Source: Candidatus Bathyarchaeia archaeon
Lineage (GTDB): Archaea > Thermoproteota > Bathyarchaeia > Bathyarchaeales > Bathycorpusculaceae
Assembly: GCA_050012755.1 (NCBI GenBank)
Contig: JBEKGO010000029.1
Location: 1-34,846 of the forward strand
Reading direction: 5' to 3'
Length of the DNA stretch: 34,846 bases
A model generated the notes under the pieces. That model worked only from the letters and a program-made list of their open reading frames with translations. It was not told the origin of the DNA and searched no databases. Shown piece after piece: positions 3,619-20,755 of the stretch (position 1 is its first letter; the number at the start of each line of letters is the position of its first letter). The position numbers and the translations under genes are program-made.

Positions 3619-3632
3619 CTCAACCATGCTCC

Positions 3633-4865
3633 TTAAGCTTTTACTGTTACCCAACTTGCGTATTTTGATGGGTCAGCTTTTTTGCCGCTTGTGAGGTAGT
3701 TTGTAACGTCTTTGAGTGTTTTTACGGCTGCTGGGTGCATCATCATAAATAAGTCGACGCCAGCAAGCAATAGTGTTAGTGCAGTTGTGACTTCCCAAAG
3801 TGGGCCTCTTAGCTCGCGTGGTTCCCATTCAGCAGACATTTTTAGCCAAGCTTCACGGGCTGCCCAAGCGTTTGTCGTTCCAGAGGACATTGGTTGTGCT
3901 AGTTCTGTGTCTCCCATTAAGCCGCCTATTCTTGCACGTTCCATGTTTGTAAATGCATAGTCTAAACCGTAGCCGAGTGCTGCGGTGGTTAAGTCCATGA
4001 TAATGTCTTCCCTGCCAACATAGTCGTAGAGGCGTCTGTTGAGCTCACGTGCCAAGTTGAGATCCATGGGTGTGAATGAGAGGATTGCGTGGCCTGCTTT
4101 CTTGATGAATTTGGCACATTTCTCGACGTCCATGTCGCGTGTGACGGAACTGATAAGGAAGCGCTCGCCTGGAAATTGTGCACATACTTCTTCGAAGACA
4201 GCTGTGTCTTTAGCTGGGTCTCCGCATCCGCCGATGACTAGTGGTACATCCACGGCTTGCAGGACTTTTTCGATGGTTTTGCATGCGTCCTTTGGCGATG
4301 CGTCTTTGAGTAGTGGGTCAACACTGATTAAGTGCATAGTGACCATGTCTGCGCCGAATTTTTCAACTGCAAGTTTTGCCCATGCTGCTGGGTCGCCGAC
4401 GACGTCTTTAACGTGCATCTTAACGGCTTTGCTTAAGGGAACTTCCATGTCGAAAACGTCAAGTGTGATTACTGGTTTATGAGTTATTGGTGCTTCAAAA
4501 GTGTAGAAAGCGGGAGAAACTTCTCCACCTATGGTGAGTGATTTTCCGCGTGTACCACCGTTCTTCCTTGTTGCCCCGAGTGTTACTTCAGCGATTTTGT
4601 TTGGGTAGGTTTCGATTGGTGGTAGGAACGGTACCTGCAAAATTGAAATTGGTTTTCCGCCTGCTACTGCGCCTGGAAGCTTTAGTTTGGGCATTATTTG
4701 CCCAGCCATTCCGGGTTCAAAGATTATTTCTAAGTCTTTGACGCCCATTTGGAAGTCTTCCAGCTCAATTTGCTGGAATTTGGCGAGTGCTTCAAGCAAG
4801 TCGTCGCTTAGTTTTAGTCCTTCAACGTCTTTTTTGTCTTTGTCGTTTTGGGACGTGAAAATCAC
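3633..4865 (-). CDS. cdhD: ACDS delta subunit (corrinoid Fe-S protein small subunit)
   Basis: EVTLGAT..GGTR, DPAAWAK, TAALGYGLDY, NAWAAREAW, MMMHP; position in the cdh cluster. Confidence 0.96.
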   Translation of the reverse strand: MIFTSQNDKDKKDVEGLKLSDDLLEALAKFQQIELEDFQMGVKDLEIIFEPGMAGQIMPKLKLPGAVAGGKPISILQVPFLPPIETYPNKIAEVTLGATRKNGGTRGKSLTIGGEVSPAFYTFEAPITHKPVITLDVFDMEVPLSKAVKMHVKDVVGDPAAWAKLAVEKFGADMVTMHLISVDPLLKDASPKDACKTIEKVLQAVDVPLVIGGCGDPAKDTAVFEEVCAQFPGERFLISSVTRDMDVEKCAKFIKKAGHAILSFTPMDLNLARELNRRLYDYVGREDIIMDLTTAALGYGLDYAFTNMERARIGGLMGDTELAQPMSSGTTNAWAAREAWLKMSAEWEPRELRGPLWEVTTALTLLLAGVDLFMMMHPAAVKTLKDVTNYLTSGKKADPSKYASWVTVKA

Positions 4866-6283
4866 CGTTTGTCTTTGTTATCTTTGCTGTCTTTGACTGT
4901 TGTTATGATGACTTTGTTGGCGTAGATTTTTGCATCTTTGAGTATGATTTTGAATCCGCCAGCCATTATGGGTAGTGTGCCTGCTGTTGCAACTGGCATC
5001 ATTGTGCCTGCTGCTTCTTCGTTAACTTGGACTGCTTGTGCTTCTGGTGCTGGTGCTTCTTCTGCTTCCCATCTTGCAACTACTGGATGATTCTTAGCTT
5101 TCAAGAATGTCTTGAGTTCTTCTACATTCTTTGCGTCTTCTTCAGTCGCAATTTTGTCAACAAGATCTTTCGGTATGAAATCTTTGACTTTTTCTTTGAC
5201 TTCTTTGGGTACCCAGACTATGCGGTTCCATCCACCGTCTGCTGCAAAGAATTTCTTGCTTCTCATGTATTCTATGGACATTCCGTGGAAACCGTCGATT
5301 TGTCTTCCACCTGCTGCTGAGTCCGCGATAGTGCTGAAGGGTAAGCCGTTTACGGCTGCTCCTTTGAAGCTTCTGTTTACTACTGCTAATCCGTCGACTT
5401 CCGGCACATAGAATGTTACTGCTTCGAAGCATCCGCATGAAGTGTGTGGGTGATCAAATGCTGTGTAGAGCCAAACTTGCTGAACTTCGCCCATTGTGCG
5501 TTTCTTGGCGGCTTCGTTGACGCCTGAGAATTCACCTTTTTCTTCGTTGATCATTTCGCCTCTTGGAATTGCGAAGACTGGACCTTTCGGGTCGATGCTT
5601 GCTGAGGCTTTGCCGTCAAACCAGCTGATTGCACCGCAGTTGCTGTATCGTTGAGGTGTGATGATGCAGACGTGGCTTGGTGCGAATGATTGACATAGGG
5701 CACAGCCATAGAAAGTGTCGACTTCTGAGTCTTTTAGGCCTCTAGCTTTTGCGTCGCGTGATTCATACGCTTGCATTGCTTCAGGGGTCATTTCCTCTAG
5801 TTTTGCTGGGTCGGTTATGAAGGTAATTTGTACTTTCTCTATGATTGGTAGTTCACTCTTGAATAAGCGGTAGAGAACTTTGCCGATTGGTTCAAAACTG
5901 TTTAAGCCTTTTTGGAATGATTTTTTGCCTATGCGTATCCAGATGTCATAGCGCTGGTTTAGATGCATGAAGCCTTCGATGTAGTTTAGGTAGCCGTGAA
6001 TACGCCTTTCAATAACACCTTCGAGGCCTGCATCGAGTTTTGCTCCTGCAGCTTCAACGAGGATGCCGAATGGGTATGCACCGCCTTCCTTTAGGTCTTT
6101 TAAGTCTGGGCCGATGATGGTGATTTTGCCATCTTCGACTTCATTCATGGGTTTTACTTTTGCTAATTCAAACTTTTGTTTGACTGTGGGTCCGCCGAGT
6201 TCTACTTGCATGTCGTTTCTTCGGATACGTTCGCCTTCGTATATTACGCCAACTTCAACAGGTATATCTTTAAACATTGACAT
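4862..6283 (-). CDS. cdhC: ACDS beta subunit (acetyl-CoA synthase, A-cluster)
   Basis: GCALCQSFAPSHVC, CGAISW, PHTSCGCFE, ADGGWNRIVW. GGAGG lies upstream of ATG 6283. Confidence 0.97.
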   Translation of the reverse strand: MSMFKDIPVEVGVIYEGERIRRNDMQVELGGPTVKQKFELAKVKPMNEVEDGKITIIGPDLKDLKEGGAYPFGILVEAAGAKLDAGLEGVIERRIHGYLNYIEGFMHLNQRYDIWIRIGKKSFQKGLNSFEPIGKVLYRLFKSELPIIEKVQITFITDPAKLEEMTPEAMQAYESRDAKARGLKDSEVDTFYGCALCQSFAPSHVCIITPQRYSNCGAISWFDGKASASIDPKGPVFAIPRGEMINEEKGEFSGVNEAAKKRTMGEVQQVWLYTAFDHPHTSCGCFEAVTFYVPEVDGLAVVNRSFKGAAVNGLPFSTIADSAAGGRQIDGFHGMSIEYMRSKKFFAADGGWNRIVWVPKEVKEKVKDFIPKDLVDKIATEEDAKNVEELKTFLKAKNHPVVARWEAEEAPAPEAQAVQVNEEAAGTMMPVATAGTLPIMAGGFKIILKDAKIYANKVIITTVKDSKDNKDKR

Positions 6284-6287
6284 TTTT

Positions 6288-6830
6288 TTAATTTCCTCCA
6301 TTAAATTTTGAGGTCATTACTTTGAGATTTGCAGCCCATTCTTCAAGGGTTGCGTTTGGGAAAGACCAACTTGCGTGGACGTGGAACAGGTTGTCGAGAG
6401 TCATGGTTTTTAGGTCTGGTGCAAAATGTTTGAGTCCTGAAAGCATCAATGATTCAACATAGTAAGGTAACCCGACGAACATAACTAGGTCTGGGTGTCC
6501 TTTACCGTCTAAGCCTTGCCATGTTGGATCGACTACTAGGTTGCCTATCTCCATTGCATTCATAAATGCTGCTGGTTGGTATCCACGTTTTAGGAATTCG
6601 CCTACCATGTGGGCTGTGGCTACTACTGGTACTTTGGAGGCGTTAGCGAAATCGATTAGGTATTCGATTAATTGTTTGCCTTCCATGTACCTTTCAGTCG
6701 CGTTGCTTCCCACAATGAGAAGGGGACGTTGAGCTTTTTTGATCATTGCTACTGCTATCTCGGGTTTTTGTATTGGGTTTGCTTTTTTAGTTGAGGCTAT
6801 TTCTCCACATTGCCATGGTTCACAGGACAT
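6288..6830 (-). CDS. cdhB: ACDS epsilon subunit
   Basis: MIKKAQRPLLIVG, WQGLDGKG, ASWSFPN; lies between cdhA and cdhC. Confidence 0.93.
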   Translation of the reverse strand: MSCEPWQCGEIASTKKANPIQKPEIAVAMIKKAQRPLLIVGSNATERYMEGKQLIEYLIDFANASKVPVVATAHMVGEFLKRGYQPAAFMNAMEIGNLVVDPTWQGLDGKGHPDLVMFVGLPYYVESLMLSGLKHFAPDLKTMTLDNLFHVHASWSFPNATLEEWAANLKVMTSKFNGGN

Positions 6831-6846
6831 AGTTTATTTCCTCCAA

Positions 6847-9195
6847 TTACTCCTTCATTTTTCGGACCATTCTTGGAAGCAAGGTTGGGTCCGGAATTAC
6901 TGTTTCTTTCCAGTCGTGTGCTTCAAGTATCTTTGTGAATTCGTCTTTCATGGTCATTGGGACATCAGCCATTGTTCTCACGAATAGGTGCAAGTCGTTT
7001 GGCATAACTCCCATGTATCGTTTGCTTAGGTCCACATAGTGGCTTAGTTTTATGCTGCGTCCTTTCCATGTGTCGTTTGGTCTAATGCAAAGCTTTGCGA
7101 TTGCAACCATACATTCTTCTTTGGTTTCAACTGAGTTGAAGAGGTGTTCTGGTGCTGGTCCGACGTTAACTTTGTCGCCTGTACGGGCATCATAGACTTC
7201 AAAGTCTTCGGGGTGATCTTCTCTGCCAAGGAGCATACGACGGTATTTTACACCGTGTGGACCGACGAGGACTGGTATGCCTAAGCGCCAGAATCCTGCG
7301 GCGATTGATGCGGCTTTCTGTGAGTATGCACCCCAAGCCAAGCCGACTGCACCTAAGCGGTTGTGGATGTAATCTGCGATTTCTTCATAGTTGCCTCTTA
7401 ATGGGCGTTTGGCGAAGATGTTTGCAACTTTGATTGCTGCACCTGCAATGTGGCTGTTTGAGACACATGAGCCGACGTTTAGGACTCCTCCTGCTTCGAA
7501 TCCGCCTGGGAATTCTTCGTAGATTGTTTGGCCTTCGCTGTTTCTGTAGCTGCCAGCTGACATGGCTGAGCACCCTGAAAGGGCAACGATGTATCGTCTG
7601 AGTGCGAATTCTCTGCATATATCGTAGACGTCTTTGCCGCCTTTTGGATAGTTACTGCAGCCTACTACTGCAACGATGCCTGGGATTTCTCCGAGGACGA
7701 TTGGGCTACCGACATTGCGGATTTCGACGTCTGAAACTGCGCCTCTTCCTACGCGGCAAAGGTTGTTTTCTGCGTACATGGCTTTTTCGCCTGCTTTAAC
7801 GATGAGGCTGTGGATCATGATTTTTTGTGGGCATGCTTCTTCGCATCTGCCGCATCCGATACAGGTCTCATATAGGTCAGTTAGTAGTGATAGGTCGCCT
7901 TTTGCTGCTGCCTTGATGGCTGCTGGAATGGCGTAATCTTGTGGGCAGTTACGTTGGCAACTCTTGCATTGTGTGCAGGTCTTAGCGATTTGTGTAATTT
8001 CCTCGATGGTTGGAAGGCTACTCATTCGTTTGCGTACTGGGGCAACTTTTTGGGCAACGCGAACTGCGACTTCGCCGACTTTTTCTGGATCAAGAATTAG
8101 TACACCTTTGACTTTGCCACTGACGAGATCAGCGACGATTTCATCTGCTGGGTCGTTTGTACGGTTCTTGAAACCCACACAGTTCTTTTCTGATGCTGCA
8201 ATGACTGGTGTGTTAACTTTGGTTGCTTCGTCATACACGTCTGTTCGGATACATTGTTCGTCAAGTACGACTACGTCTGCTAAACCTGCACGGATGAATC
8301 TGAGCTCCCAACTAATTGGTCCAACAATTCTGGCGCGATTATAATATCGTGTCATGTCGTGGGCTGTGCAGCATAAGCCGACAACTTCAATTTTGTCGTC
8401 AACTTTGGTTTCTTTTGCATAGTCAATTATTCCCACTGAGGGGATGACGTTGTGACCGATGCACATTACAACTGGTTTGGTTCGGTCGACGCTTGCGATG
8501 CCTAGTTTTACGAGTGGCGCTTCTGGGTCTGCTTTTGGAAAGCCTAAGGTTGAGATTTGTGCGATGTCGCCGACTTCCATGCCTACGTGGTCAATCATGC
8601 CGACATGCATTGCTTTGGATTCAAAGTCTAAGTTGTTGCTTTCTTGACCTGTGTGACCTACTGCGAGGATTTGGGTGATTTGCTCTTCGGTGTAAGTTAA
8701 AATGTCATCTAGGTCGCCGAGTGTTTCAGGTTTTATACCAGTAACAAGGCGGCTGACTGGTGCTTCAACTTTTACGTTTAATCCACCGACGTCTAAGGGG
8801 TATCTGCGGCCGTATTTTTCAATTAAGGAGTGAAGAAGGTGTCGTGAGTGGGCTGTGTGGCAGGCTGCTCCAATTGCACAAGCTAACATCACAATACGAG
8901 ATGATTGAGTTGCGATGTCTATACCGCATGCGCCGCGTTTTCCAGCTGTCAAATCGCATTTTCCAAAAGTGCACAGACAGCATAGGTCACAATCGGGCAT
9001 GTAGAAAGGCTTGTACTTGTTGAGAAGCTTCATGTCCCAGTCCCGAAGAGTAGTCATGGAGGGCATTGGGGTTGGACCCATGGGCTCAGTATAGTTGTCA
9101 TTGATAACCTTGCCGATGGATACTTCAAGATTTTTGATAAAACCACTATTGGTCTTCATTTCGTCGATTTTTATTTGGACGTTTTTAGTTGTCAA
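6847..9195 (-). CDS. cdhA: ACDS alpha subunit (Ni-CO dehydrogenase)
   Basis: CCLCTFGKCDL, GHN, CCTAHD, DEQC, two CxxCxxCxxxCP motifs, GSCVSNSH, SQKAASIA. TTG at 9195 with an upstream GAGGT is preferred over the ORF-track start at 9285. Confidence 0.97.
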   Translation of the reverse strand: MTTKNVQIKIDEMKTNSGFIKNLEVSIGKVINDNYTEPMGPTPMPSMTTLRDWDMKLLNKYKPFYMPDCDLCCLCTFGKCDLTAGKRGACGIDIATQSSRIVMLACAIGAACHTAHSRHLLHSLIEKYGRRYPLDVGGLNVKVEAPVSRLVTGIKPETLGDLDDILTYTEEQITQILAVGHTGQESNNLDFESKAMHVGMIDHVGMEVGDIAQISTLGFPKADPEAPLVKLGIASVDRTKPVVMCIGHNVIPSVGIIDYAKETKVDDKIEVVGLCCTAHDMTRYYNRARIVGPISWELRFIRAGLADVVVLDEQCIRTDVYDEATKVNTPVIAASEKNCVGFKNRTNDPADEIVADLVSGKVKGVLILDPEKVGEVAVRVAQKVAPVRKRMSSLPTIEEITQIAKTCTQCKSCQRNCPQDYAIPAAIKAAAKGDLSLLTDLYETCIGCGRCEEACPQKIMIHSLIVKAGEKAMYAENNLCRVGRGAVSDVEIRNVGSPIVLGEIPGIVAVVGCSNYPKGGKDVYDICREFALRRYIVALSGCSAMSAGSYRNSEGQTIYEEFPGGFEAGGVLNVGSCVSNSHIAGAAIKVANIFAKRPLRGNYEEIADYIHNRLGAVGLAWGAYSQKAASIAAGFWRLGIPVLVGPHGVKYRRMLLGREDHPEDFEVYDARTGDKVNVGPAPEHLFNSVETKEECMVAIAKLCIRPNDTWKGRSIKLSHYVDLSKRYMGVMPNDLHLFVRTMADVPMTMKDEFTKILEAHDWKETVIPDPTLLPRMVRKMKE

Positions 9196-9352
9196 ATTAG
9201 GAAACCTCTGTAAAGGTTTAGGTGTATGCTGCATTACAATCTTTTTAAACCTTTCCAGATTTTTAACGCAGAAGTCACGTTGCATTTGTAGAAACGGAAG
9301 GTTTCCAGAAAATTGTGTAAAAAAAGCGTGTGGATGTGTAAAGAAATTGGGC

Positions 9353-10117: not shown

Positions 10118-10136
10118 TTAATAAAACCTCAAAGTC

Positions 10137-10916
10137 CTATGTTATTTTTTTAATCAAAAGCTCACATATATTATCTATGGTTTTAACCGCTGAGATTTCT
10201 TTGTTTTTAAGCGGAGTTTCACCAAGCATGTCAGCTTCAGTAACTTTCTGGTCAAAGGGCACAAATGCTATCAGGGATAGACCATTTTTGTCTGCAAAGT
10301 TTTGGATAGCCATTTTCTGATCTTCATTCATTACTCTGTTTCCAACAAGATAGAGCTGTTTCATTCCAGCAGCTGCAGCCATATCATGGATATGTTTGGC
10401 AATTTCCAGCGATTTCAAGTTTGAATCTGCAACGATAAGTAAAGCATCAACTTGCCTAGCAGTGCCTCGACCTATGTGCTCTACACCAGCCTCCAAATCT
10501 AAAACAACCGCCTCGTCACGTTCCACAACCAAATGCCTTAACAAAGCACGTATGACTGCATTTGGCGCGCACATGCAACCCGCTCCCATCGACTGTACGG
10601 TACCCATAACAATCAAGTTTGCACCCAAGGGAGTGGCGACAGAATATTGTTTGACTATGTCATCAACAGAAAAATTTAAATTGTAAACACCAGAGTAACC
10701 GGTGCTTGTTTTTGCTTCAACTAGTTTTGTATTCTCGGAAATTGGTACGATCTTACGCGTTTCCTCAACTGATAGACCTAAAGTTAAGCCCAGATTTGGA
10801 GAAGAATCAGCGTCGATCGCGATTGTTTTTAATCCGCGTTCAGCAAAACCTCGGGCTAAACCGCCTGCAATCAGAGTTTTGCCGACTCCGCCTTTACCAG
10901 AAACAGCTACCTTCAT
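10137..10916 (-). CDS. cooC: CooC-family nickel-insertion ATPase
   Basis: GKGGVGKT, IDADS, GCMCAP, DLEAGVEHIGRG. Confidence 0.92.
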   Translation of the reverse strand: MKVAVSGKGGVGKTLIAGGLARGFAERGLKTIAIDADSSPNLGLTLGLSVEETRKIVPISENTKLVEAKTSTGYSGVYNLNFSVDDIVKQYSVATPLGANLIVMGTVQSMGAGCMCAPNAVIRALLRHLVVERDEAVVLDLEAGVEHIGRGTARQVDALLIVADSNLKSLEIAKHIHDMAAAAGMKQLYLVGNRVMNEDQKMAIQNFADKNGLSLIAFVPFDQKVTEADMLGETPLKNKEISAVKTIDNICELLIKKIT

Positions 10917-10985
10917 TCAAATCACACATAAATAGATTTAAGAAAACATTAATTTACGTTTCTTAAAGATAAAAAGAAAAAATGT

Positions 10986-12461
10986 TTATTGGACTTTTGG
11001 TGTTTGTGCTGGAGGTTGCACTGGCATTTCTGGCTGAATTATTTTCGCAAAATTCTTCTTTGCACGGTTAAATTTCAGTGTCGCCAGCTTAACGATCTCG
11101 TCCTTGTTGACTTCAGCTGTTGTCAGTTGTGTGTTCTCCAGAAGCGTTTTTCCTATGTCGGACCGAACGATTACAGTTGAGTACCCTTCGGGGCTTCCCA
11201 CTGAACCTACTGATACGTCGGCGTATTTGTTGCTGAAGTCATCACAGAAGTTGCAGCCGTGTTCTTGAGCCGCAGCCAAATCTTTCACTGCAACAGCATA
11301 ATCTTTGCCTTCAACTGTGGCCATGAATTTGCCCTTGTGAATCTGTGTTTTCTCAACCTTATCCAAGTCGACGCCCATTTGATTCTGAACGGCAACCTTA
11401 AGCTTGTCATAATCGAACGCTTCAAAACAGAACAATCCAACAATACTAAGTTGCAGATCAGGACAACTTTTAAGCATCGAATTCTGGATTTTTCTTATAG
11501 CGCGGACCTCGCAAGGTGTACCCACAATTGCAATTTTGCGTTTGCCGCTTGCAATTACATCGTTCAACAACCAAAGCATCTTTACACGCAGGTATTTCGT
11601 CCCTTTCGCTTTGATGAGATCATCAACGTTCTCCGCTACTACGGCATCGGCTTGGTAGCCTTCTGTACGTTGCACGACGATGGCTGTGTCAAATAATCCT
11701 TTTTGCATTCCAGAGACCAGAATGGAGGTTGCAACTCCGCCGTCCTGCCCTGCTATGGAACTCTTCGCCGCAAGAATTTGATTATAAATTCCTAGTGTTT
11801 CATCGTATGTTCCATTCAGGAATTGCTGATTAATTTTTTTGCCATCTTCTTCAAGTGTTGGATACGTATAAGCCCTTGTGCGCTTTGACTTTGTTGGGCA
11901 AATGGTTGCGCATGCGCCGCAGCCTATGCAATCGTTTGAGAATGTTTCGTAGGGTGTTGTTACTTCTCGTTCTACTCCGCGTTTAGCAAAATCTATTGCG
12001 TTTACGCCGACTAATTCGTCGCAAACACGAGTGCATAACCCACAGAGGATACAATCTTCGTCTTCATCTTCTACATAGAAACTTGGTTTTTCGATACCGT
12101 ATTCAAGCGCCAACTGCTGAATCTTAGGCACTTTCGGTGTTCGCGCCAAAAGCAAATCCAAAAGGAGTTTGCGGACTTTGACAGTTTTTTCTGACTTAGT
12201 GTTAACTACCAAGCCCTCTTCAACAGGGTAGTTGCAGGATGTAACCATGCGACTTTTTCCCCGTTTGTCGATAATTTCTACTGAGCAGACGCGGCATGAT
12301 CCGAACGCAGAGAGCGCCTTATGGTAACAAAGAGTTGGAATGTTTATTCCCATGCTTTTGGCTACTTCAAGGATTGTTGCGCCTTCTTTGGCTTTTACTT
12401 CTTGACCGTCCATCTTTAATGTGATTTCTTTTAAGTTTGCTTGCACCTTGTTTGCCTCCAT
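10986..12461 (-). CDS. Fusion: HydA/NuoG-type N-terminal Fe-S module + FrhB/FpoF F420-binding domain
   Basis: N-terminal IPTLC..GSCRVC..TSC [2Fe-2S] and CILCGLCTRVC / CIGCGACATICP. C-terminal QDGGVAT, GTKY, VGTPC, GLFC, GCNFCDDF..ADVSVGSVGSPEGYSTVIVR are FrhB-family motifs. The true start may be GTG at 12446. Confidence 0.9.
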   Translation of the reverse strand: MEANKVQANLKEITLKMDGQEVKAKEGATILEVAKSMGINIPTLCYHKALSAFGSCRVCSVEIIDKRGKSRMVTSCNYPVEEGLVVNTKSEKTVKVRKLLLDLLLARTPKVPKIQQLALEYGIEKPSFYVEDEDEDCILCGLCTRVCDELVGVNAIDFAKRGVEREVTTPYETFSNDCIGCGACATICPTKSKRTRAYTYPTLEEDGKKINQQFLNGTYDETLGIYNQILAAKSSIAGQDGGVATSILVSGMQKGLFDTAIVVQRTEGYQADAVVAENVDDLIKAKGTKYLRVKMLWLLNDVIASGKRKIAIVGTPCEVRAIRKIQNSMLKSCPDLQLSIVGLFCFEAFDYDKLKVAVQNQMGVDLDKVEKTQIHKGKFMATVEGKDYAVAVKDLAAAQEHGCNFCDDFSNKYADVSVGSVGSPEGYSTVIVRSDIGKTLLENTQLTTAEVNKDEIVKLATLKFNRAKKNFAKIIQPEMPVQPPAQTPKVQ

Positions 12462-12462
12462 T

Positions 12463-14382
12463 TCAATTCGCCTTCTTTAATGGTTTTTTTAACCTCTGTT
12501 CCTCAGGTAGAGGGGGTGGAACAGGTTCTCCAGAAATCTTTGTGACAGCCTTAAATTTGCATACGTCAAAACAGGTGCCGCATTTTGTGCATTTTGACTG
12601 GTCAATTATGTGGATTTTGCCGACTGCACCGTTGATAGCCTGTACTGGGCAGTTTCTGGCGCATAAAGTACACGCCATGCATTTGGCTGGGTCAATGTAG
12701 TAGTTTATGAGTGCTTTACATGACAGCGCTGTACATCGTTTTTCCTTGATGTGGGCGTCATACTCGTCAGCAAAGTACCGCAGCGTTGTAAGCATGGGGT
12801 TCGCTGAAGTCTGGCCTAACGCACATAACGCAGCAGCGTTTGATGCCTCAGCGATTTGTCTTAGCTTTTCAATGTCCCCTTCTTTGCCTTTGCCTTCAAC
12901 AATGTCAGTTAGTATCTTTTTGGCTTGTCTTAGACCTTCCCTGCAAGGAGTGCATTTACCGCATGACTCGTCGCTGAGAAAGTTAACAAAGTACCGTGCA
13001 ACATCAACCATGCAAGTATCGTCATCCATAACAATTAATCCGCCTGAGCCCATGATTGCACCTAGCTTTTTGAGCTCATCAAAATCAACTGGTGTGTCAA
13101 GGTACTGCTCAGGAATCATGCCGCCTGAAGGTCCTCCAGCTTGGACAGCTTTGAATTTCTTTCCATTTCTGATGCCTCCACCAATTTTGAAAATCATGTC
13201 TCTTAAGGTCATGCCCATTGCTACTTCGACTAGTCCAGTGTTGTTTACTTTCCCAGCTAAAGCGAAGATTTTAGTGCCTTTACTGCCAGCTGTGCCTATC
13301 TTAGTAAACCAATCAGCACCTTTGTTTATGATGAGTGGAATGTTAGCGTAAGTTTCCACGTTATTGAGGACGCTGGGTTTGTCCCAGAGCCCTTTCTCGG
13401 CAGTATGCACATACTTTGGTCTTGGCTCACCTACTCTGCCTTCAATAGCCGTCATAAGTGCACTTGACTCGCCAGAGACGAATGCACCCGCACCCTTGTG
13501 AATTTTGACTTTGAAGTCAAATCCTGAACCAAGGATGTTTTTGCCTAGCAACCCGTAGGCTTCGGCGTCGTCGAGGGCTTTCTGCATGTTTTCGACTGCA
13601 AGCGGGTACTCTTGGCGCACGTAAATAAAGCCTTCATGTGAACCAACAGCGTAAGCAGCGATTATGAGACCTTCAAGAATGCTGTGCGGGTTTCCTTCCA
13701 TCAAAGCTCTGTTCATGAAAGCGCCAGGATCACCTTCATCACAGTTAACTATGACGTATTTGGGGTCTCCCTGCGCTTTGCGAGTGGAATCCCATTTCAG
13801 GAAAGTCGGGAATCCTCCGCCTCCGCGACCTCTCAGCTGTGACTTCTTAACTTCCTCCATGACTTGGTCAGGAGTCATCTGAAATAGAACTTTAGCAAGT
13901 GCCTTGTAGCCATCCAAAGCAATATAGTCATCTATTTTCTTGGGATCCACTTTGGCGTTATTATCCATGAGAAGCCTGTACTGGTACTTGTAGAAAGGCA
14001 CATCAACAAGCCGTTTCGCTTTCTCACCCGTATTAGGATCAGCATACAGCAAGCGCTCAACAATTTCATTGTTCACAACAGTCTTGGCAACGATTTCCGG
14101 CACATCAGAAGCCTGCACTTTAAAGTAAGCAACGTCACTTGGATAAATGACAGCACGTGGACCTTTCTCACAAAAACCTAAACAACCAGTCTCTTTGATA
14201 TCGACCTTGCCCTCTAAACCCTGCTTTTTGAACTCCGCTTTAAAGGCTTTTAGAACCTCTTTAGCACCAAGAGCTTCACAACCCGTGCTTGTGCAAAGGG
14301 TTACTGCTGGTTTAGCTGGATCAATCTTTGATAATAGCTGGTTTCGGAATTGTTCTAAATCAGCAGCAGAATTCAATCGCAT
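12463..14382 (-). CDS. HydB/NuoF-like flavoprotein with N-terminal thioredoxin-like [2Fe-2S] and C-terminal 2x[4Fe-4S]
   Basis: LRGRGGGGFP, NCDEGDPGAFM, GGPSGG, ESCGKCTPCREG, LCALG, C-terminal CMACTLCARNCP and CTKCGTCFDVC. Confidence 0.93.
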   Translation of the reverse strand: MRLNSAADLEQFRNQLLSKIDPAKPAVTLCTSTGCEALGAKEVLKAFKAEFKKQGLEGKVDIKETGCLGFCEKGPRAVIYPSDVAYFKVQASDVPEIVAKTVVNNEIVERLLYADPNTGEKAKRLVDVPFYKYQYRLLMDNNAKVDPKKIDDYIALDGYKALAKVLFQMTPDQVMEEVKKSQLRGRGGGGFPTFLKWDSTRKAQGDPKYVIVNCDEGDPGAFMNRALMEGNPHSILEGLIIAAYAVGSHEGFIYVRQEYPLAVENMQKALDDAEAYGLLGKNILGSGFDFKVKIHKGAGAFVSGESSALMTAIEGRVGEPRPKYVHTAEKGLWDKPSVLNNVETYANIPLIINKGADWFTKIGTAGSKGTKIFALAGKVNNTGLVEVAMGMTLRDMIFKIGGGIRNGKKFKAVQAGGPSGGMIPEQYLDTPVDFDELKKLGAIMGSGGLIVMDDDTCMVDVARYFVNFLSDESCGKCTPCREGLRQAKKILTDIVEGKGKEGDIEKLRQIAEASNAAALCALGQTSANPMLTTLRYFADEYDAHIKEKRCTALSCKALINYYIDPAKCMACTLCARNCPVQAINGAVGKIHIIDQSKCTKCGTCFDVCKFKAVTKISGEPVPPPLPEEQRLKKPLKKAN

Positions 14383-14852
14383 TATTCCTTCAGCTCCGTT
14401 TTTGTATATTTGGAAATTACTTGCCCCACGTTTGAGGGAGTAAGTTTGCCATGGTATTGACCGTCTATTTCTATAACTGGTCCCAGAGCACAGCAGCCTA
14501 GGCAGTTAACGGTTTCAAGAGAGAAGTTTTTATCGCTTGTAGTCTCGCCTGGTTTAATGTTTAAGGTGCGTTCAACTGAATCTAAAATTCTTGGTCCTCC
14601 ACGGACGTAGCAGGCGGTTCCGGAACAAACACGAACAAGATGACGTCCACGTTGCTTGAGGCTCAGCGCCGTGTAGAAGCTGGCAACGCGATAGATTTCG
14701 CTAACTGGAATTTTTAGCCGCTTATTTATTCTTATTATGGCTTCTTTGGGTATCCAGTTAAGTTCATGTTGAATATCCAAAAGCAACTGAATTAAAACGC
14801 CTTCGCCACCAACATATTTGTCGATGATTTTATCGATTTGCTCGATTGACAT
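14382..14852 (-). CDS. HydC/NuoE-like [2Fe-2S] subunit
   Basis: VASFY, VCSGTACYVRG, CLGCCALGP; its stop overlaps the start of the next gene. Confidence 0.93.
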   Translation of the reverse strand: MSIEQIDKIIDKYVGGEGVLIQLLLDIQHELNWIPKEAIIRINKRLKIPVSEIYRVASFYTALSLKQRGRHLVRVCSGTACYVRGGPRILDSVERTLNIKPGETTSDKNFSLETVNCLGCCALGPVIEIDGQYHGKLTPSNVGQVISKYTKTELKE

Positions 14853-15002
14853 TTATGGGGTCTCCACTGTGGTTAGAAACGTAAAATACATCTTCTAATT
14901 AAATAAGGGTTTGCTGTTATTTTTCGGAATATATATCATTTATACTAATATTAACCATTAATACGCTAGTACGCCTTTAGAAGCACATCTTTGCAATGTT
15001 AA

Positions 15003-15650
15003 TCAGGGTACTTTGCTGTTGAAATTGATCTGCTCCAAAAATCGTTTAGAAATGGTCGTATTTTTGATTTCGAATATCTTTTTCAGATCTTCTACGGAAT
15101 CAATGTCAGCCGCAAGTTGATTTGAAAAGTGCAACCTCACACTAACATCATTTCGGAATGCCTCTCGAATATGGTTTATGAAGCTTTCTGGTCCAAAACA
15201 GGCGGGAATTAGCTTGGGAGGGTTCTGGTAAAGCGCGTTAGTTCCCCAATCATGGGAAGGAGACAAAACAACAGCAGGGTTGCCATCATCGGCAAGTTGG
15301 ATAATTCGGTTGATTTCTTCAGAATTAACGAGAGGGACATCAGCCGGCAAAACAAGAATGGATTGCGCACCCTTTTCAACGCAATATGATGTGGTTTCTT
15401 CAATGGAGGAATTCAAAGTTGCTCCGTTAGCAAACCGGTAGGAAGCCCCAAACTGTTCTGCTGTTTCCTGAACTTGGAAATCTTCAGCCACTATAACAAC
15501 CTTGTCAACGGCTGAAGCTTTCAGGGCGTTTAGAACGTCTTCAAGCATAGCTAGAGTAAGCATTGCACGTTCCTGCGGTGTGAAAACTGCTGAAAGCCTC
15601 TTTTTTGACTGAGCAAGCTTCTTTACCGGGATAATTGCGTGGACAGCCAC
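15003..15650 (-). CDS. cofC: 2-phospho-L-lactate/PEP guanylyltransferase (F420 biosynthesis)
   Basis: IIPVK..SKKRLS, AMLEDVL, PADVP, GTNAL, FGPESF..H, DIDSVEDL. GTG at 15650 follows GGTGA. Confidence 0.92.
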   Translation of the reverse strand: MAVHAIIPVKKLAQSKKRLSAVFTPQERAMLTLAMLEDVLNALKASAVDKVVIVAEDFQVQETAEQFGASYRFANGATLNSSIEETTSYCVEKGAQSILVLPADVPLVNSEEINRIIQLADDGNPAVVLSPSHDWGTNALYQNPPKLIPACFGPESFINHIREAFRNDVSVRLHFSNQLAADIDSVEDLKKIFEIKNTTISKRFLEQINFNSKVP

Positions 15651-15738
15651 TTTGAAATCACCAAAGGTGATCAAACGAGCGACAAGAGTCGATATTGCTG
15701 AAATGTGAATTGAATGTTGCCTAAAAATATTTAGATGG

Positions 15739-15756
15739 GCGCGCGATTAAGCGCGC
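15739..15756 (-). terminator. GC hairpin downstream of mer
   Basis: GCGCGC-GATTAA-GCGCGC, 10 nt after the mer stop codon. Confidence 0.45.
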
Positions 15757-15766
15757 TTTCTAAAAT

Positions 15767-16765
15767 TTAGCTTTTAAAGTGTGGGATAATTTTGCTGCCG
15801 ATCAAGTCGATAGAGTTTTTAACGTTGGTTCCAATTGGGGAGCCGACTACAAATTGACTAATGTCGATTTTTTGTAGGCCAGCTATTTTTTCAATGCACA
15901 CGTCGGGCGTGCCAGAAATTGAGAATGCATCAATCATTTCGGGTGTAACGGCTGCTAATGCTTTTGGAAAATCACCTACTTTCAGAGCCGCCCGTAATTC
16001 GTCTGCTTTAGCTACGTCTATTTTGTGTTTCTCAAGAACTGGCGGTGGACTGCCTGCAACTATGAACGCGACTACAGGTGCAGCTGCTTTAACGGCTTTT
16101 TTGGGATCTTCATTAACTGAGAATGAAGTGTAAGCTGTTATATCAACATCGCCAGGTGATTTGCCCGCCTGCTTCATTCCTTCATTCGCCATTTTAACAG
16201 CAAATTCTATGTCGCTTGGGTGACTGGCGTTTATCAGAACTCCGTCGCCAATTTTTCCAGCCATCTCCAGCATTTTTGGACCTTGAGCGCCCACGTAAAC
16301 TGGGATCTTGTTTGCTGGTTTAAAATTTAGTTTGGCGCCTGCAGCCTTGAAAACTTCACCTTGGAAAGCAACTTTTTCGCCGGCTGTCAGTTTGCGGAAC
16401 ATTTCTATGGATTCCTTAACTGCGGCTAATGGTTTGCCCATTTCTATGCCGACGGCTTCAAGGGTGGTTTTGTCTCCTGCACCCATGCCAAGAACAACTC
16501 TTCCCGGCGCTAACTCATTTAATGTTGCAATTGCCTGTGCAGTTATAACTGGGTTAACCATCCATGGGTTGGTTACACCTGTACCGAAGATGATTTTGTT
16601 TGTGTATAAAGCAGCGGCTGCAAGAGTAACATAGACATTCCGATTGCCAAAGTGGTCTGTTACCCAAAGGTTGTCAAACCCGCTGTTTTCAGCTTGAATA
16701 GCGTAAGCGGCTAATTTCCAATAGGGATCTTTTGGAACAAATTCAATTCCGAATTTAAGTGCCAA
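15767..16765 (-). CDS. mer: F420-dependent methylene-H4MPT reductase
   Basis: KFGIEFVP, WVTDHFGNRNVY, GVTNP, GAGDKTTL, GAQGPKML, LINASHP, GSPIG. Confidence 0.95.
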   Translation of the reverse strand: MALKFGIEFVPKDPYWKLAAYAIQAENSGFDNLWVTDHFGNRNVYVTLAAAALYTNKIIFGTGVTNPWMVNPVITAQAIATLNELAPGRVVLGMGAGDKTTLEAVGIEMGKPLAAVKESIEMFRKLTAGEKVAFQGEVFKAAGAKLNFKPANKIPVYVGAQGPKMLEMAGKIGDGVLINASHPSDIEFAVKMANEGMKQAGKSPGDVDITAYTSFSVNEDPKKAVKAAAPVVAFIVAGSPPPVLEKHKIDVAKADELRAALKVGDFPKALAAVTPEMIDAFSISGTPDVCIEKIAGLQKIDISQFVVGSPIGTNVKNSIDLIGSKIIPHFKS

Positions 16766-19944: not shown

Positions 19945-20703
19945 ATGGATGTCATAAAAATAATTGCCGTTGAAAACCTACCACTAATAAAACCCGGAGA
20001 CAACATTGCAGAACTCATTTCAAACGCCGCAAAAAAACAAGGCACACCAATAAAGGAAAACGATGTAATTGTAGTCACTCATGTGGTGGTTTCAAAAGCT
20101 GAAGGAAACATAATCAACCTTGACGGAATGACACCTTCTGAGAAAGCAAAGGAAATAGCCCAACAAACAAACAAAGAACCAGCCTTAGTTGAGGTGATTC
20201 TCAGAGAAACAAAAGAAATAGTCCGAATAGGGCAAAATAGCATAATAACAGAGACTAATAGTGGAATAGTTTGCGCGAATGCTGGAATTGATAGGTCTAA
20301 TGTTTCGGGCGACCGAAATGTTGTTCCGTTGCCAAAAAACCCGAATGCGTCTGCACAAAACATTAGGCAAGAAATTAAGCAATTAACTGGAGTTAACGTG
20401 GCGGTTATCGTTTCTGACACTCATGGTAGACCCTTTCGTTTAGGGGAAATAAATGTGGCAGTTGGCGTGGCAGGAATTAAGCCGATAAGGGACAGACGCG
20501 GCGAAAAAGACCTCTTTGGATATGTGCTTCGAATAAAACAAACTGCAATTGCCGATGAATTATCCTCAGCCGCTGAACTTGTAATTGGCCAAGCCAACGA
20601 AGGAATCCCAGCTGCAATTATCCGGGGGTACAGTTACCAAATAATTGAAGGCGCCTCAACAACGGAGCTCATTAGAGCCAAAGAAAAAGACCTTTTCAGA
20701 TAA
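19945..20703 (+). CDS. cofE: F420-0:gamma-glutamyl ligase
   Basis: LPLIKPGD, VSKAEG, CANAGIDRSN, DTHGRPFR, ADELSSAAEL. Confidence 0.95.
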   Translation: MDVIKIIAVENLPLIKPGDNIAELISNAAKKQGTPIKENDVIVVTHVVVSKAEGNIINLDGMTPSEKAKEIAQQTNKEPALVEVILRETKEIVRIGQNSIITETNSGIVCANAGIDRSNVSGDRNVVPLPKNPNASAQNIRQEIKQLTGVNVAVIVSDTHGRPFRLGEINVAVGVAGIKPIRDRRGEKDLFGYVLRIKQTAIADELSSAAELVIGQANEGIPAAIIRGYSYQIIEGASTTELIRAKEKDLFR

Positions 20704-20755
20704 GGAGTCAATAAGGTTCAATAATCCAACTGCATAAGATACCTGAAAGCGTGAG

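Follow-up and report, generated by a model that had tools for sequence, protein, structure and literature searches.

Layout of the bfuCBA locus

The window analysed here is the whole 34,846-nt stretch of DNA from Candidatus Bathyarchaeia archaeon (GCA_050012755.1, contig JBEKGO010000029.1, positions 1–34,846). Inspection of its open reading frames revealed three ORFs at 10986–14852 on the minus strand, in the order C, B and A and with exactly the boundaries given in a preliminary description of this DNA, which had proposed a HydABC/Bfu-type trimer of coupled genes. The stop codon of bfuC and the start codon of bfuB overlap by one base (TAATG), and the bfuB stop and bfuA start codons lie one base apart (TGAAATG). 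NCBIfam equivalog cutoffs were not reached for NuoE, NuoF, FrhB (171 vs 331.5) or FpoF (150 vs 475), and the subunits were therefore named by their architecture.

Table 1. Features of the bfuCBA region in the window.
Feature	Position	Strand	Evidence and remarks
bfuC, NuoE/HydC-like subunit	14382..14852	-	156 aa; one [2Fe-2S] C1; PF01257
bfuB, NuoF/HydB-like FMN + NAD(H) subunit	12463..14382	-	639 aa; Pfam and PDB matches
bfuA, HydA/NuoG-type N-terminus fused to FrhB-type FAD/[4Fe-4S] domain	10986..12461	-	491 aa; Pfam and NCBIfam
cofC/bfuC spacer	14853..15002	-	150 nt, AT-rich, TATA-like stretches, GGAG ahead of ATG; sequence reading
T-rich tract TTTTTTCTTTTTATCTTT	10965..10982	-	A few bases past the bfuA stop; sequence reading
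cofC, 2-phospho-L-lactate guanylyltransferase, F420 biosynthesis	15003..15674	-	TIGR03552, 159.8 bits (cutoff 105)
mer, F420-dependent methylene-H4MPT reductase	15767..16765	-	TIGR03555, 436.3 bits (cutoff 348.7)
cofE, F420-0:L-glutamate ligase	19945..20703	+	TIGR01916, 300.6 bits (cutoff 180.65)
Two P-loop ATPase genes	10137-10916, 9353-10117	-	Pfam CbiA, ParA, AAA_31; between bfuA and cdhA
CODH/ACS genes, whole block	2194..9285	-	All five above NCBIfam cutoffs
cdhA	6847-9285	-	Above NCBIfam cutoff
cdhB	6288-6830	-	Above NCBIfam cutoff
cdhC	4862-6301	-	Above NCBIfam cutoff
cdhD	3633-4865	-	Above NCBIfam cutoff
CODH/ACS gamma subunit	2194-3654	-	Above NCBIfam cutoff

The spacer between cofC and bfuC may contain a promoter of bfuCBA's own, judging from its base composition and motifs; a sigma-70 promoter scan is not applicable to archaea. 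Similarly, the T-rich tract could be an archaeal oligo-T terminator, in which case bfuCBA would form a separate transcription unit.

The placement of the cluster between mer/cofC and the CODH/ACS genes was borne out, as mer, cofC and the cdh genes all scored above their NCBIfam cutoffs. Mer is likely to be the consumer of F420H2, and cofE provides a second F420 biosynthesis gene nearby. From their position and family, the two P-loop ATPases appear to be CooC-like. CODH/ACS represents the ferredoxin-dependent end of the pathway. No transmembrane-like segment was found in BfuA, BfuB or BfuC (no Kyte-Doolittle average over 19 residues exceeded 1.6), and, in agreement with the preliminary description, no hydrogenase or membrane-complex genes occurred among the ORFs scanned in the window (100 aa or longer).

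Cofactor sites of BfuC and BfuB

BfuC consists of a 2Fe-2S_thioredx domain (PF01257, E 7e-48) with Cys76, 81, 117 and 121 as ligands of the [2Fe-2S] cluster C1, and its top solved relatives were 7t2r_C (151.4 bits), 8a6t_C and 9mqx_C. In BfuB, Pfam identified 2Fe-2S_thioredx (23–100), Complex1_51K (3e-45), SLBB, NADH_4Fe-4S (3.4e-31) and Fer4 (561–613). The features quoted earlier as typical of bifurcating HydB were all located: the N-terminal [2Fe-2S] site (Cys30, 35, 67, 71), the C...H-x5-C-x4-C site termed B2 (Cys457, His544, Cys550, Cys555), the C-terminal pair of [4Fe-4S] clusters B3/B4 (eight Cys, 568–608), and the motifs GAFM at 220, PVDF at 431, DTCMVD at 455 and HIKEKRCTALSC at 544. 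The [4Fe-4S] cluster B1 is assigned to Cys474, 477, 480 and 520. These BfuB ligands were kept in all six Bathyarchaeial orthologs.

The top eight PDB matches of BfuB were all Bfu-type B subunits (645–774 bits), whereas FdsB and NuoF scored at most 360 bits. The best two were the NiFe-HydB of Acetomicrobium mobile (7t2r_B, 773.7 bits) and WorB (9mqx_B, 741.8 bits); HydB of T. kivui, A. woodii and T. maritima and the NfnB/Stn B subunits gave 645–715 bits. Bifurcation has been described experimentally, in the available parts of the respective reports, for the A. mobile NiFe- and Wor- and the T. sibiricus Nfn- enzymes. The four B2 residues align with A. mobile C438, H525, C531 and C536. Schut et al. 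2022 (PMC9304861) report that only 8 of 1558 BfuB sequences lack the B2-site His, and that homologs which do not bifurcate are without it. GAFM and the Phe of PVDF are at most candidate markers of bifurcation; A. mobile HydB has PIDY in place of PVDF. In the alignment, C476 of A. mobile HydB, the fifth B2-cluster ligand, corresponds to Val495 of the window protein; roughly two in three BfuB proteins have Thr at this position, and other Bfu enzymes hold Zn at the B2 site. BfuB has all the additional cofactor sites seen in bifurcating HydB/BfuB. One of the orthologous loci (L006), however, encodes a 506-aa HoxF-like paralog that retains the C/H/C/C site but lacks the C-terminal ferredoxin domain, so this motif alone is not discriminating.

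BfuA is a fusion of a HydA/NuoG-type N-terminus and an FrhB-type domain

The preliminary description had assigned to the third subunit an Fe-S N-terminus fused to an FrhB/FpoF domain, and Pfam confirmed this organization along with the hydC- and hydB-like identities of its partners: Fer2_4 (11–90, 1.5e-19) and a 4Fe-4S dicluster domain (132–191) are followed by FrhB_FdhB_N (237–299, 1.5e-13) and FrhB_FdhB_C (308–444, 4.7e-38). The N-terminal part contains ligands for the [2Fe-2S] cluster A1 (Cys45, 56, 59, 76) and for the [4Fe-4S] clusters A2 and A4 (Cys137–188), and the motif for the His-ligated [4Fe-4S] cluster (A3/N5) was absent from it. In the FrhB-type domain, GQDGG occurs at 238 and the cluster cysteines are Cys317, 345, 403 and 406. 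Sixteen Cys of BfuA were invariant across 33 sequences.

No single PDB chain spanned both halves of the protein. The N-terminus matched WorA (9mqx_A, E 2.5e-41), which also lacks A3. The C-terminal domain proved closest to solved F420-dependent enzymes, scoring 147 bits against Fsr (7np8_A) and 128–137 bits against FrhB (9r51_B, 6qgr_B, 3zfs_C), but only 33 bits against HCAR (5dqr_A), a relative that does not use F420. Full-length homologs were found in Methanothrix sp. (45% identity over 468 aa), which belongs to the lineage of the original F420-Bfu prediction, and in ANME-1 (53%). One Methanothrix homolog carries the annotation 'F(420)H(2) dehydrogenase subunit F'. The fused BfuA constitutes a large family distributed in Bathyarchaeia, ANME-1, Methanolliviera and Methanothrix, and the fused protein forms a separate, well-supported clade.

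Conservation of the gene neighbourhood

The gene cofC lies directly upstream of bfuCBA in all six loci having upstream sequence, and mer adjoins in five of the six. CODH/ACS genes follow bfuA in only two of seven loci, the window and L002, where the bfu genes stand directly upstream of cooC-cdhABCDE; a convergent P-type ATPase gene lies downstream in L001, L003 and L004, and a Hox-type hydrogenase in L006. The linkage with cofC and mer is therefore conserved, whereas adjacency to CODH/ACS is not a conserved gene order. This qualifies the earlier proposal that the complex connects the F420 pool of Mer with the ferredoxin of CODH.

Proposed reaction and its alternatives

Taken together, these features suggest that the product of bfuCBA is probably a soluble heterotrimer that belongs to the BfuABC (HydABC) family and represents the predicted F420-Bfu type. 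The preliminary interpretation is supported, since its testable parts held; complex formation, F420 as substrate, ferredoxin coupling with bifurcation, the direction and the choice between NAD and NADP we infer from the protein sequences. The FAD in the FrhB-type domain would be the site of F420 reduction or oxidation, and single electrons would pass from the [4Fe-4S] cluster of this domain through A4, A2 and A1 [2Fe-2S] to the BfuBC core (B1 [4Fe-4S], FMN and C1 [2Fe-2S]), with NAD(H) reacting at the FMN and ferredoxin at the C-terminal B3/B4 domain of BfuB. The most likely net reaction would be NADH + Fd(red, 2e-) + 2 F420 + H+ <-> NAD+ + Fd(ox) + 2 F420H2.

With the potentials in Table 1 of Schut et al. 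2022 (PMC9304861; F420, -360 mV; NAD E', -280 mV; Fd E', -500 mV), the two donors, NADH and ferredoxin, have a mean potential of -390 mV. Passing each electron on to F420 is thus favourable by ~30 mV, or roughly -12 kJ for 2 F420H2. These values favour F420 reduction by NADH and reduced ferredoxin, not F420H2-driven ferredoxin reduction. In this Bathyarchaeon the enzyme would probably operate by confurcation: electrons of NADH and of reduced ferredoxin, supplied by fermentation or, through other enzymes, by H2, would be merged into F420H2 for Mer, and also for Mtd if Mtd is F420-dependent. The H4MPT Wood-Ljungdahl pathway would thereby obtain reductant for its methyl branch, with no F420-reducing hydrogenase involved. 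The F420H2 source for Mer in Bathy-6 'remains unclear' (Loh et al. 2021), and an F420-Bfu could explain how F420 is reduced for carbon fixation in these archaea without hydrogenase.

A simpler reading, which we regard as unlikely, is that of a non-bifurcating diaphorase acting as a plain F420H2:NAD(P)+ oxidoreductase; the ferredoxin-like B3/B4 domain and the additional clusters would then have only a structural role or lead electrons nowhere. On the same Table 1 potentials, electrons would pass from F420H2 to NAD+ with a slight energy gain even uncoupled (-360 vs -280 mV), so thermodynamics does not call for coupling; bifurcation is not a property that a sequence can reveal, the C/H/C/C site recurs in the HoxF-like paralog, and Val495 replaces a Cys/Thr ligand. 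Nevertheless, the scores of BfuB with bifurcating B subunits were about double those with FdsB/NuoF. In archaea, moreover, F420H2:NAD(P)+ oxidoreduction is carried out by the small one-subunit enzyme Fno, and a complex with ~30 Fe for the same task is thus unparsimonious. BfuB also has all the sites by which Schut et al. tell bifurcating BfuB and NADH-only homologs apart.

It is rather improbable that this is a Bfu enzyme with an FrhB-like domain that acts on a different third substrate in place of F420, be it some other flavin or deazaflavin analogue, NADP, or a small redox protein such as rubredoxin. HCAR, an FrhB-family enzyme without F420 chemistry, is a detectable relative, a Thermococcus FrhAGB is reportedly rubredoxin-reducing, and the FrhB and FpoF scores were subthreshold; however, bit scores of the domain with the F420-dependent Fsr and FrhB are four times that with HCAR, and the domain is encoded beside an invariant cofC, with cofE and the F420-dependent mer nearby. 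We give very little weight to the view that the proteins form an electron-input module docking on CODH alpha/epsilon, Hdr or an Fpo-like membrane complex instead of a free-standing three-substrate enzyme. Such docking would fit the cooC-cdhABCDE adjacency, the clustering of other FrhB paralogs with CODH alpha/epsilon and HdrA in ANME-1 (Chadwick et al.) and the annotation of the Methanothrix homolog, but it is at odds with the variable downstream genes, the T-rich tract after bfuA, the lack in BfuA of a NuoG C-terminal domain for a complex I-like arm, and the lack of membrane-complex genes among the scanned ORFs.

Comparison with known systems

The NiFe-HydABCSL of A. mobile (7T2R/7T30) gave the best overall matches for B and C; it and FeFe-HydABC (7P5H, 8A6T, 7Q4V) share the B and C cofactor sites of the window proteins but are hydrogenases, whose HydA contains A3 and ends in an H-cluster or A5 domain. 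WorABCSL of A. mobile (9MQX, PMC12318220; 130.8 bits for C) is likewise similar, WorA residues 5–180 aligning with the BfuA N-terminus. In the available text, electrons in WorA follow S4-A4-A2-A1; BfuA likewise lacks A3, and the A4-A2-A1 route would therefore apply to it. Unlike the window enzyme, Wor relies on separate tungsten subunits to oxidise its third substrate, and WorA ends in a zinc finger and adaptor helix instead of an FrhB-type catalytic domain. NfnABC of Thermococcus sibiricus (9N5U, PMC12018979; 645.8 bits for B), also an archaeal Type 1 Bfu with a BfuA FAD domain for a hydride carrier, similarly supplies biosynthetic or pathway reductant from NADH and ferredoxin; as reported in the available text, however, its third substrate is NADP(H), at an NfnL-like domain, and Zn replaces two clusters.

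The F420H2-oxidising FAD/[4Fe-4S] modules FrhB, FpoF and the N-terminal half of Fsr share PF04422 and PF04432, the four cluster Cys and GQDGG with BfuA, but their partners are a hydrogenase, a membrane arm or sulfite reductase, in place of a fused NuoG/HydA-type N-terminus and NuoEF-type subunits. HdrABC-FrhB and HdrA2B2C2, the F420-linked enzymes of flavin-based bifurcation in methanogens and ANME, resemble the window enzyme in outline, as they join the F420 pool with ferredoxin and one further couple. Their bifurcating module (HdrA FAD) is unrelated, however, and heterodisulfide stands in the place of NAD.

The architecture itself is not new: as the preliminary description had surmised, a family survey had predicted it, Schut et al. 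2022 (PMC9304861) naming F420-Bfu as a Type 1 BfuABC with BfuB in clade 45. In the literature found, the term occurs only there, three later Bfu structure papers do not mention F420, and neither an assay nor a structure of F420-Bfu appeared, in line with the preliminary statement on biochemical characterisation. As far as the available text of the survey goes, the prediction was based on two sequences, from Methanosaetaceae only, with a proposed role in F420H2 supply for biosynthesis, and it has the same BfuBC core and a BfuA with an F420-reducing FAD domain and only A1, A2 and A4. What is new is the Bathyarchaeia host, the large family of the fused protein, which forms a separate clade, and the cofC/mer synteny, joined in this genome by CODH/ACS; this neighbourhood suggests a role in the Wood-Ljungdahl pathway.

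Organization of the bfuCBA genes

The preliminary description had claimed three coupled genes between positions 10986 and 14852, and open reading frames for the C, B and A subunits (bfuC, bfuB and bfuA) were found at exactly these positions. The bfuC stop codon and the bfuB start codon overlap by one base (TAATG), and a single base separates the bfuB stop from the bfuA start. An AT-rich spacer of 150 nt with TATA-like stretches precedes bfuC, and a T-rich tract follows the bfuA stop codon. Read in the light of general knowledge of archaeal promoters and oligo-T terminators, these two elements suggest that bfuCBA may be a transcription unit of its own. A scan for sigma-70 promoters and terminators returned counts no higher than the shuffle expectation; the sigma-70 model is not applicable to archaea. 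The GC content of the three-gene region is the same as that of its surroundings, and tRNA and Rfam scans of the window gave no match. Transmembrane-like hydrophobic segments are lacking in all three proteins, and no Nuo, Fpo or hydrogenase genes were found among the scanned ORFs of the window (100 aa or longer), in agreement with the earlier statement that hydrogenase and membrane-complex genes are lacking nearby.

Coordinates of the genes described, in the window or in the homologous locus named
Sequence	Feature	Position	Strand	Remark
Window	bfuA	10986–12461	-	491 aa
Window	bfuB	12463–14382	-	639 aa
Window	bfuC	14382–14852	-	156 aa
Window	94-aa ORF	16767–17051	-	ends one base before mer start
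Window	acd-GNAT gene	17108–19786	-	892 aa
Window	gene set with cofE	19945–24516		cofE: TIGR01916 300.6 bits, cutoff 180.65
Window	deoxyhypusine synthase paralog	24576–25550	+	
Window	deoxyhypusine synthase paralog	25561–26703	-	
Window	polyferredoxin-like gene	29767–30372	-	201 aa
L004	bfuA	10001–11221	+	406 aa
L006	Hox-type cluster	11777–16591	-	
L008	RnfD/NqrB-FrhB fusion	8948–11104	+	718 aa
L009	RnfD/NqrB-FrhB fusion	8834–11005		723 aa
L010	stand-alone FrhB homolog	9764–10768	+	334 aa

BfuC and BfuB resemble the core subunits of bifurcating enzymes

Pfam searches, which the preliminary description had called for, found in all three subunits the domains claimed for them. BfuC has a NuoE-type thioredoxin-like [2Fe-2S] domain (PF01257, E 7e-48) with the four cysteines of cluster C1 (Cys76, 81, 117 and 121), and its best PDB matches are 7t2r_C (top, 151.4 bits), 8a6t_C and 9mqx_C. 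BfuB combines a partial PF01257 match at residues 23–100 (the N-terminal [2Fe-2S] cluster, B5), the NuoF FMN domain (PF01512, E 3e-45) and GRGGGGFP at 185, an SLBB domain, the NuoF [4Fe-4S] region (PF10589, E 3.4e-31) and a C-terminal ferredoxin-like domain with two Fer4 motifs at 561–613. The following residues are kept in six out of six Bathyarchaeial orthologs: Cys30, 35, 67 and 71 of B5; Cys474, 477, 480 and 520 of the [4Fe-4S] cluster B1; Cys457, His544, Cys550 and Cys555 of the B2 site; and eight cysteines at 568–608 for B3/B4. All the motifs quoted earlier for this subunit are present, and the conserved ligands include those of the three sites singled out there, namely the N-terminal [2Fe-2S] cluster, the C...H-x5-C-x4-C site and the C-terminal pair of [4Fe-4S] clusters.

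The four B2 residues align with C438, H525, C531 and C536 of Acetomicrobium mobile, which constitute the site (Cys...His-x5-Cys-x4-Cys) according to Schut et al. 2022 (PMC9304861). In the accessible text of that survey, the histidine is missing from 8 of 1558 BfuB sequences and absent from non-bifurcating homologs. A fifth B2 ligand is not found in the window protein, in which Val495 aligns with A. mobile C476; according to Schut et al. 2022 (PMC9304861), roughly two in three BfuB have Thr at this position. Because the B2 site carries Zn in Wor (the tungsten enzyme WorABCSL), FeFe and Nfn enzymes (PMC12018979, PMC12318220), Val495 probably does not disqualify the complex from the BfuABC family. 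A HoxF-like paralog at locus L006 did not make a clean negative control, since it keeps the C/H/C/C site; the B3/B4 cysteines, and with them the C-terminal pair of [4Fe-4S] clusters, are missing from it.

The eight best PDB matches of BfuB were all B subunits of Bfu-type complexes: NiFe-HydB of A. mobile (7t2r_B, 773.7 bits, residues 27–616), WorB (9mqx_B, 741.8 bits), and HydB of 8a6t, 7q4v and 7p5h together with the B subunits of 9bov, 8oh5 and 9n5u (645–715 bits). A truncated HydB construct came next, and the beta subunit of NAD-dependent formate dehydrogenase and NuoF scored at most 360 bits, over the core only. By clade, NiFe-HydB of clade 49 thus ranked first and WorB, with a stated clade of 45, second.

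BfuA is a fusion with an FrhB-type domain

In BfuA, Pfam places a Fer2_4 domain at 11–90, a dicluster domain at 132–191 and the two halves of the FrhB/FdhB family at 237–299 (PF04422, E 1.5e-13) and 308–444 (PF04432, E 4.7e-38), above the cutoffs. We aligned the window protein with 32 homologs hand-picked from the best 120 of 1886 matches. Sixteen cysteines are invariant across these 33 sequences, 12 of them N-terminal: Cys45, 56, 59 and 76 of the [2Fe-2S] cluster A1; Cys137, 140, 143, 147, 178, 181, 184 and 188 of two [4Fe-4S] clusters; and Cys317, 345, 403 and 406 of the FrhB cluster. After the [2Fe-2S] cluster there is no His-x3-Cys-x2-Cys motif; the sequence there reads LLLARTPKVP, and no cysteine lies between residues 76 and 137. 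The His-ligated cluster A3 (N5) of HydA/NuoG is therefore absent from BfuA. A1, A2 and A4 as the only clusters of this series, and an FrhB-like domain in place of the H-cluster domain, are the features of F420-Bfu, a predicted subtype of the HydABC-type Bfu family.

Residues 13–190 align with WorA (9mqx_A, E 2.5e-41), and no PDB counterpart spanning full-length BfuA was found. The C-terminal domain alone (215–477) matched Fsr, a sulfite reductase that is F420-dependent (7np8_A), with 147 bits, the FrhB structures 9r51_B, 6qgr_B and 3zfs_C with 128–137 bits, F420-FdhB with 42 bits and a non-F420 relative, 7-hydroxymethyl chlorophyll a reductase (5dqr_A), with 33 bits. The four FrhB-cluster cysteines and the GQDGG stretch are kept in the alignments with these relatives. 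The fusion of a HydA/NuoG-type N-terminus to an FrhB/FpoF domain, as proposed earlier, is borne out by the Pfam domains and the PDB alignments.

Genomic context

A genome scan returned ten loci (L001 to L010), six of which have the fused gene (L001 to L006), and synteny counts are therefore small. We compared these six loci with the window.

Genes adjoining bfuCBA in the window and at L001 to L006
Locus	cofC upstream	mer next to cofC	Downstream of bfuA
Window	yes	yes	cooC-cooC-cdhABCDE
L001	yes	yes	convergent P-type metal ATPase
L002	yes	no	cooC-cooC-cdhABCDE
L003	yes	yes	convergent P-type metal ATPase
L004	yes	yes	convergent P-type metal ATPase
L005	no upstream sequence	no upstream sequence	short contig, only bfuB and bfuA
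L006	yes	yes	Hox-type NiFe hydrogenase cluster

The F420 biosynthesis gene cofC lies directly upstream of bfuCBA at all six loci with upstream sequence, and mer, encoding the F420-dependent methylene-H4MPT reductase, adjoins cofC at five of them; in its place, L002 has an ORF that is divergent and truncated and whose MtdB-type N-terminal match is weak and falls below threshold. The cooC and cdh (CODH/ACS) genes follow bfuA at only two of the seven loci. Thus, the conserved partners of bfuCBA are F420 biosynthesis and Mer, and CODH/ACS is not one of them. Of the placement between mer/cofC and CODH/ACS noted in the preliminary description, the mer/cofC side holds generally and the CODH/ACS side does not.

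Nine of the ten loci are titled Bathyarchaeota or Bathyarchaeia. The remaining one, L003, is a 9.7-kb contig titled Candidatus Acidoferrum sp.; its mer, cofC and bfuCBA are 74–93% identical to those of the window, and it is probably a mis-binned Bathyarchaeial contig. The bfuA ORF of L004 is shorter than elsewhere, with a tblastn match covering 396 residues, probably owing to a frameshift or assembly error in that MAG. The Hox-type cluster of L006, directly downstream of and convergent with bfuA, comprises genes for a NuoE-like protein, the 506-aa HoxF-like protein, HoxU with the NuoG His-cluster domain, a small subunit and a NiFe large subunit. The last is split into two overlapping ORFs (275 and 201 aa), which may reflect a frameshift or a real division.

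Other genes of the window were also noted. The 94-aa ORF beside mer occurs in the same place in L001, L004 and L006 (54–93% identity); it matched no Pfam or NCBIfam family, and its top ESM Atlas score of 0.76 is below the useful range. The 892-aa protein has an NDP-forming acyl-CoA synthetase-like region (CoA-binding, Succ_CoA_lig, ATP-grasp_5) and a C-terminal GNAT domain, an order that we take to be the architecture of Pat-type protein acetyltransferases. It falls below all NCBIfam equivalog cutoffs, so that a plain label of ADP-forming acetyl-CoA synthetase is uncertain; its gene is kept beside the cluster in L001, L004, L006 and L010. Further along lie cofE, a GCS2/YbdK-like ligase, an RLAN-domain protein and a RimK-family ATP-grasp ligase with a weak match to the H4MPT:glutamate ligase MptN (67 bits, cutoff 350); this set may serve further F420 or H4MPT tailoring. 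The two convergent deoxyhypusine synthase paralogs pass different NCBIfam equivalogs (PRK01221, 450 bits, cutoff 350; PRK00805, 441 bits, cutoff 434). The 201-aa HydN/DmsB-like polyferredoxin, with multiple 4Fe-4S motifs, has no obvious partner gene adjoining it.

Distribution of the fused protein

Of 8000 entries scored in the 90%-identity collection, 1886 matched BfuA at E <= 1e-3; the top 120 of these are 64–100% identical to it and 449–494 aa long. A strict pattern ([2Fe-2S] motif, two CxxCxxCxxxC, GQDGG) was passed by 118 of the 120; the other two differ only in GQDGG. Among 1.84 billion 50%-identity representatives, there were 14023 matches at E <= 1e-3 and 390 at E <= 1e-30. Of the best 150, P0081 (67% identity) and P0122 (42%) alone match over the two halves without a break; the rest are mostly FrhB-only proteins or BfuA-like ones of about 250 aa. 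With P0122 as query, 613 matches at E <= 1e-60 were obtained out of 8000 scored, and by their protein names those with the fused architecture include Methanothrix sp., Methanotrichaceae, ANME-1 GoMg2, Candidatus Methanolliviera, Methanomicrobia and Halobacteriota. Over 468 aa, the window BfuA shares 45% identity with an identically arranged protein named Methanothrix sp., in line with homology to the Methanosaetaceae enzyme of the predicted F420-Bfu subtype.

A quick maximum-likelihood tree of 52 rows was built from the window protein, 14 of the 120 BfuA matches, 34 of the 118 new P0122 matches and three FrhB-only outgroups. In it, 16 rows form a Bathyarchaeia-labelled clade (SH-aLRT 99) and 24 rows a Halobacteriota clade (80), within which ANME-1/Methanolliviera and Methanothrix make up subclades; nine further rows group around P0122 in a clade with a long stem. 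The root lies on long outgroup branches and is unreliable.

Other FrhB-domain proteins in Bathyarchaeia

The scan also returned a different fusion, at L007, L008 and L009, which joins a membrane RnfD/NqrB-like domain, a 4Fe-4S dicluster domain and a full FrhB domain. The L008 protein has PF03116 at residues 3–357 with several hydrophobic segments and is 51% identical to residues 108–470 of the window BfuA; no other Rnf genes adjoin its gene in L008. Such fusions occur in genomes that have F420-Bfu, L008 being on the contig of L001 and L007 from the MAG of L002. The family is large, with 978 of 8000 scored entries matching at E <= 1e-30; PF03116 and the FrhB domains are present in every one of the best 120, and its named members are from Bathyarchaeota and one Hodarchaeota. 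No literature naming both 'RnfD' and 'FrhB' was found, and the protein may represent a so far undescribed kind of F420-linked oxidoreductase bound to the membrane. At L010, from another Bathyarchaeota genome, a stand-alone FrhB homolog (50% identical to BfuA residues 220–470) and a TrmB-type regulator lie between cooC-cdhABCD and acd-GNAT, the position of mer-cofC-bfuCBA in the window.

Proposed reaction and alternatives

Bathyarchaeia are among the most abundant archaea of anoxic sediments and soils and have been argued to be acetogens. Genome papers leave a gap in their pathway, namely how F420 is reduced for Mer without an FrhAG hydrogenase; the accessible text of Loh et al. 2021 (PMC7886697) mentions no more than 'a homolog of FrhB', with no hydrogenase subunits, and says that the source of F420H2 for Mer 'remains unclear'. 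We propose that bfuCBA encodes the missing hydrogenase-independent F420 reductase of non-methanogenic archaea with the H4MPT Wood-Ljungdahl pathway. Working reversibly, such an enzyme would confurcate or bifurcate between NADH + ferredoxin and F420, as the first Bfu whose third substrate is a deazaflavin. Its conservation would reach from Bathyarchaeia to ANME-1, Methanolliviera and Methanothrix, and it would determine the redox balance in archaeal acetogenesis and, in reverse, in methane and alkane oxidation. We give this proposal an even chance of being right.

In the predicted complex, F420 and FAD would exchange hydride in the FrhB-type domain of BfuA, and single electrons would pass from its [4Fe-4S] cluster through A4, A2 and A1 to the B1/FMN/C1 group, termed the 'flavobicluster' (PMC12018979). 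NAD(H) would react at the FMN, and ferredoxin would dock at the B3/B4 domain of BfuB, adjoining BfuC's C-terminal domain. We propose this path by homology with the Wor, NiFe and Nfn enzymes, whose structures are solved. With E' values of -280 mV for NADH and -500 mV for ferredoxin, and with -360 mV for F420 (Schut et al. 2022, Table 1, PMC9304861), the mean of the two donors is -390 mV, a drop to F420 of about 12 kJ per 2 F420H2 by our arithmetic, so that confurcation toward F420H2 would be downhill; running it in reverse takes a high ratio of F420H2 to F420. In a Bathyarchaeon that ferments or uses H2, confurcation would supply Mer and would allow the Wood-Ljungdahl pathway to act as a sink for both NADH and reduced ferredoxin.

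Activity as a ferredoxin-independent F420H2:NAD(P)+ diaphorase seems unlikely to us, given a BfuB that retains the B2 and B3/B4 sites. Domain homology and the neighbouring genes cofC, cofE and mer suggest that BfuA binds and reduces F420. A different third substrate, for which the non-F420 relative among the PDB matches would speak, appears improbable. CODH/ACS adjacency is down-weighted as functional evidence on account of the two loci in seven, and it is, in our view, very improbable that BfuCBA serves CODH, Hdr or an Fpo-like complex as a docking module.

If the confurcating F420 reductase is real, a soluble enzyme producing F420H2 from NADH and reduced ferredoxin closes the Bathyarchaeial gap, the pathway stoichiometry becomes computable, and a class predicted from two methanogen sequences extends to a large archaeal family. 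The three genes would then be a concrete target for expression and assay, in a first test of the Bfu 'flavobicluster' core coupling to a deazaflavin, and the conserved cofC/mer context makes the recognised gap in acetogenesis directly testable.

Comparison with known systems

Several named systems were considered and rejected. The complex I N-module (NuoEFG) was not supported by the scores (nuoF 479.5, cutoff 558.65; NuoE 137.3, cutoff 141), nor the Hox diaphorase HoxEFU (HoxU 125, cutoff 333), and the A3 motif of both is missing. FrhB proper (TIGR03289, 171.4, cutoff 331.5) and FpoF proper (NF040616, 150.4, cutoff 475) fell below their curated equivalog cutoffs, and BfuA is, as judged by these scores, a family relative rather than an ortholog.

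The Bfu family is defined by its conserved BfuBC core, and the accessible text of Schut et al. 2022 (PMC9304861) lists F420-Bfu as an uncharacterised Type 1 enzyme of BfuB clade 45 with 2 sequences, proposed to oxidise NADH and ferredoxin and to make F420H2 for biosynthesis. The preliminary description had suspected that surveys might have predicted such an architecture, which is the case, and knew of no biochemical characterisation; our literature search likewise found none. In that search, whose sources may hold further entries in supplementary tables, the term 'F420-Bfu' occurred in Schut et al. 2022 only, no paper describing such a complex in Bathyarchaeia was found, and the other Bfu papers found from 2022 onward do not mention F420. 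The complex is also unmentioned in the accessible text of Qi et al. 2021 and Berben et al. 2022. The ANME system in Chadwick et al. may belong to the same family, because the window BfuA is 53% identical to an ANME-1 protein over 465 aa and NuoE is a thioredoxin-like ferredoxin.

The initial observation is thus confirmed and its interpretation supported. WorA of A. mobile likewise lacks A3 and passes electrons from A4 through A2 and A1 to WorB, as described in the accessible text of PMC12318220. The window complex is a member of a kind of enzyme already predicted in print but uncharacterised, to which the present analysis adds a new host lineage, a family far larger than the two published sequences, and a conserved cofC/mer context.
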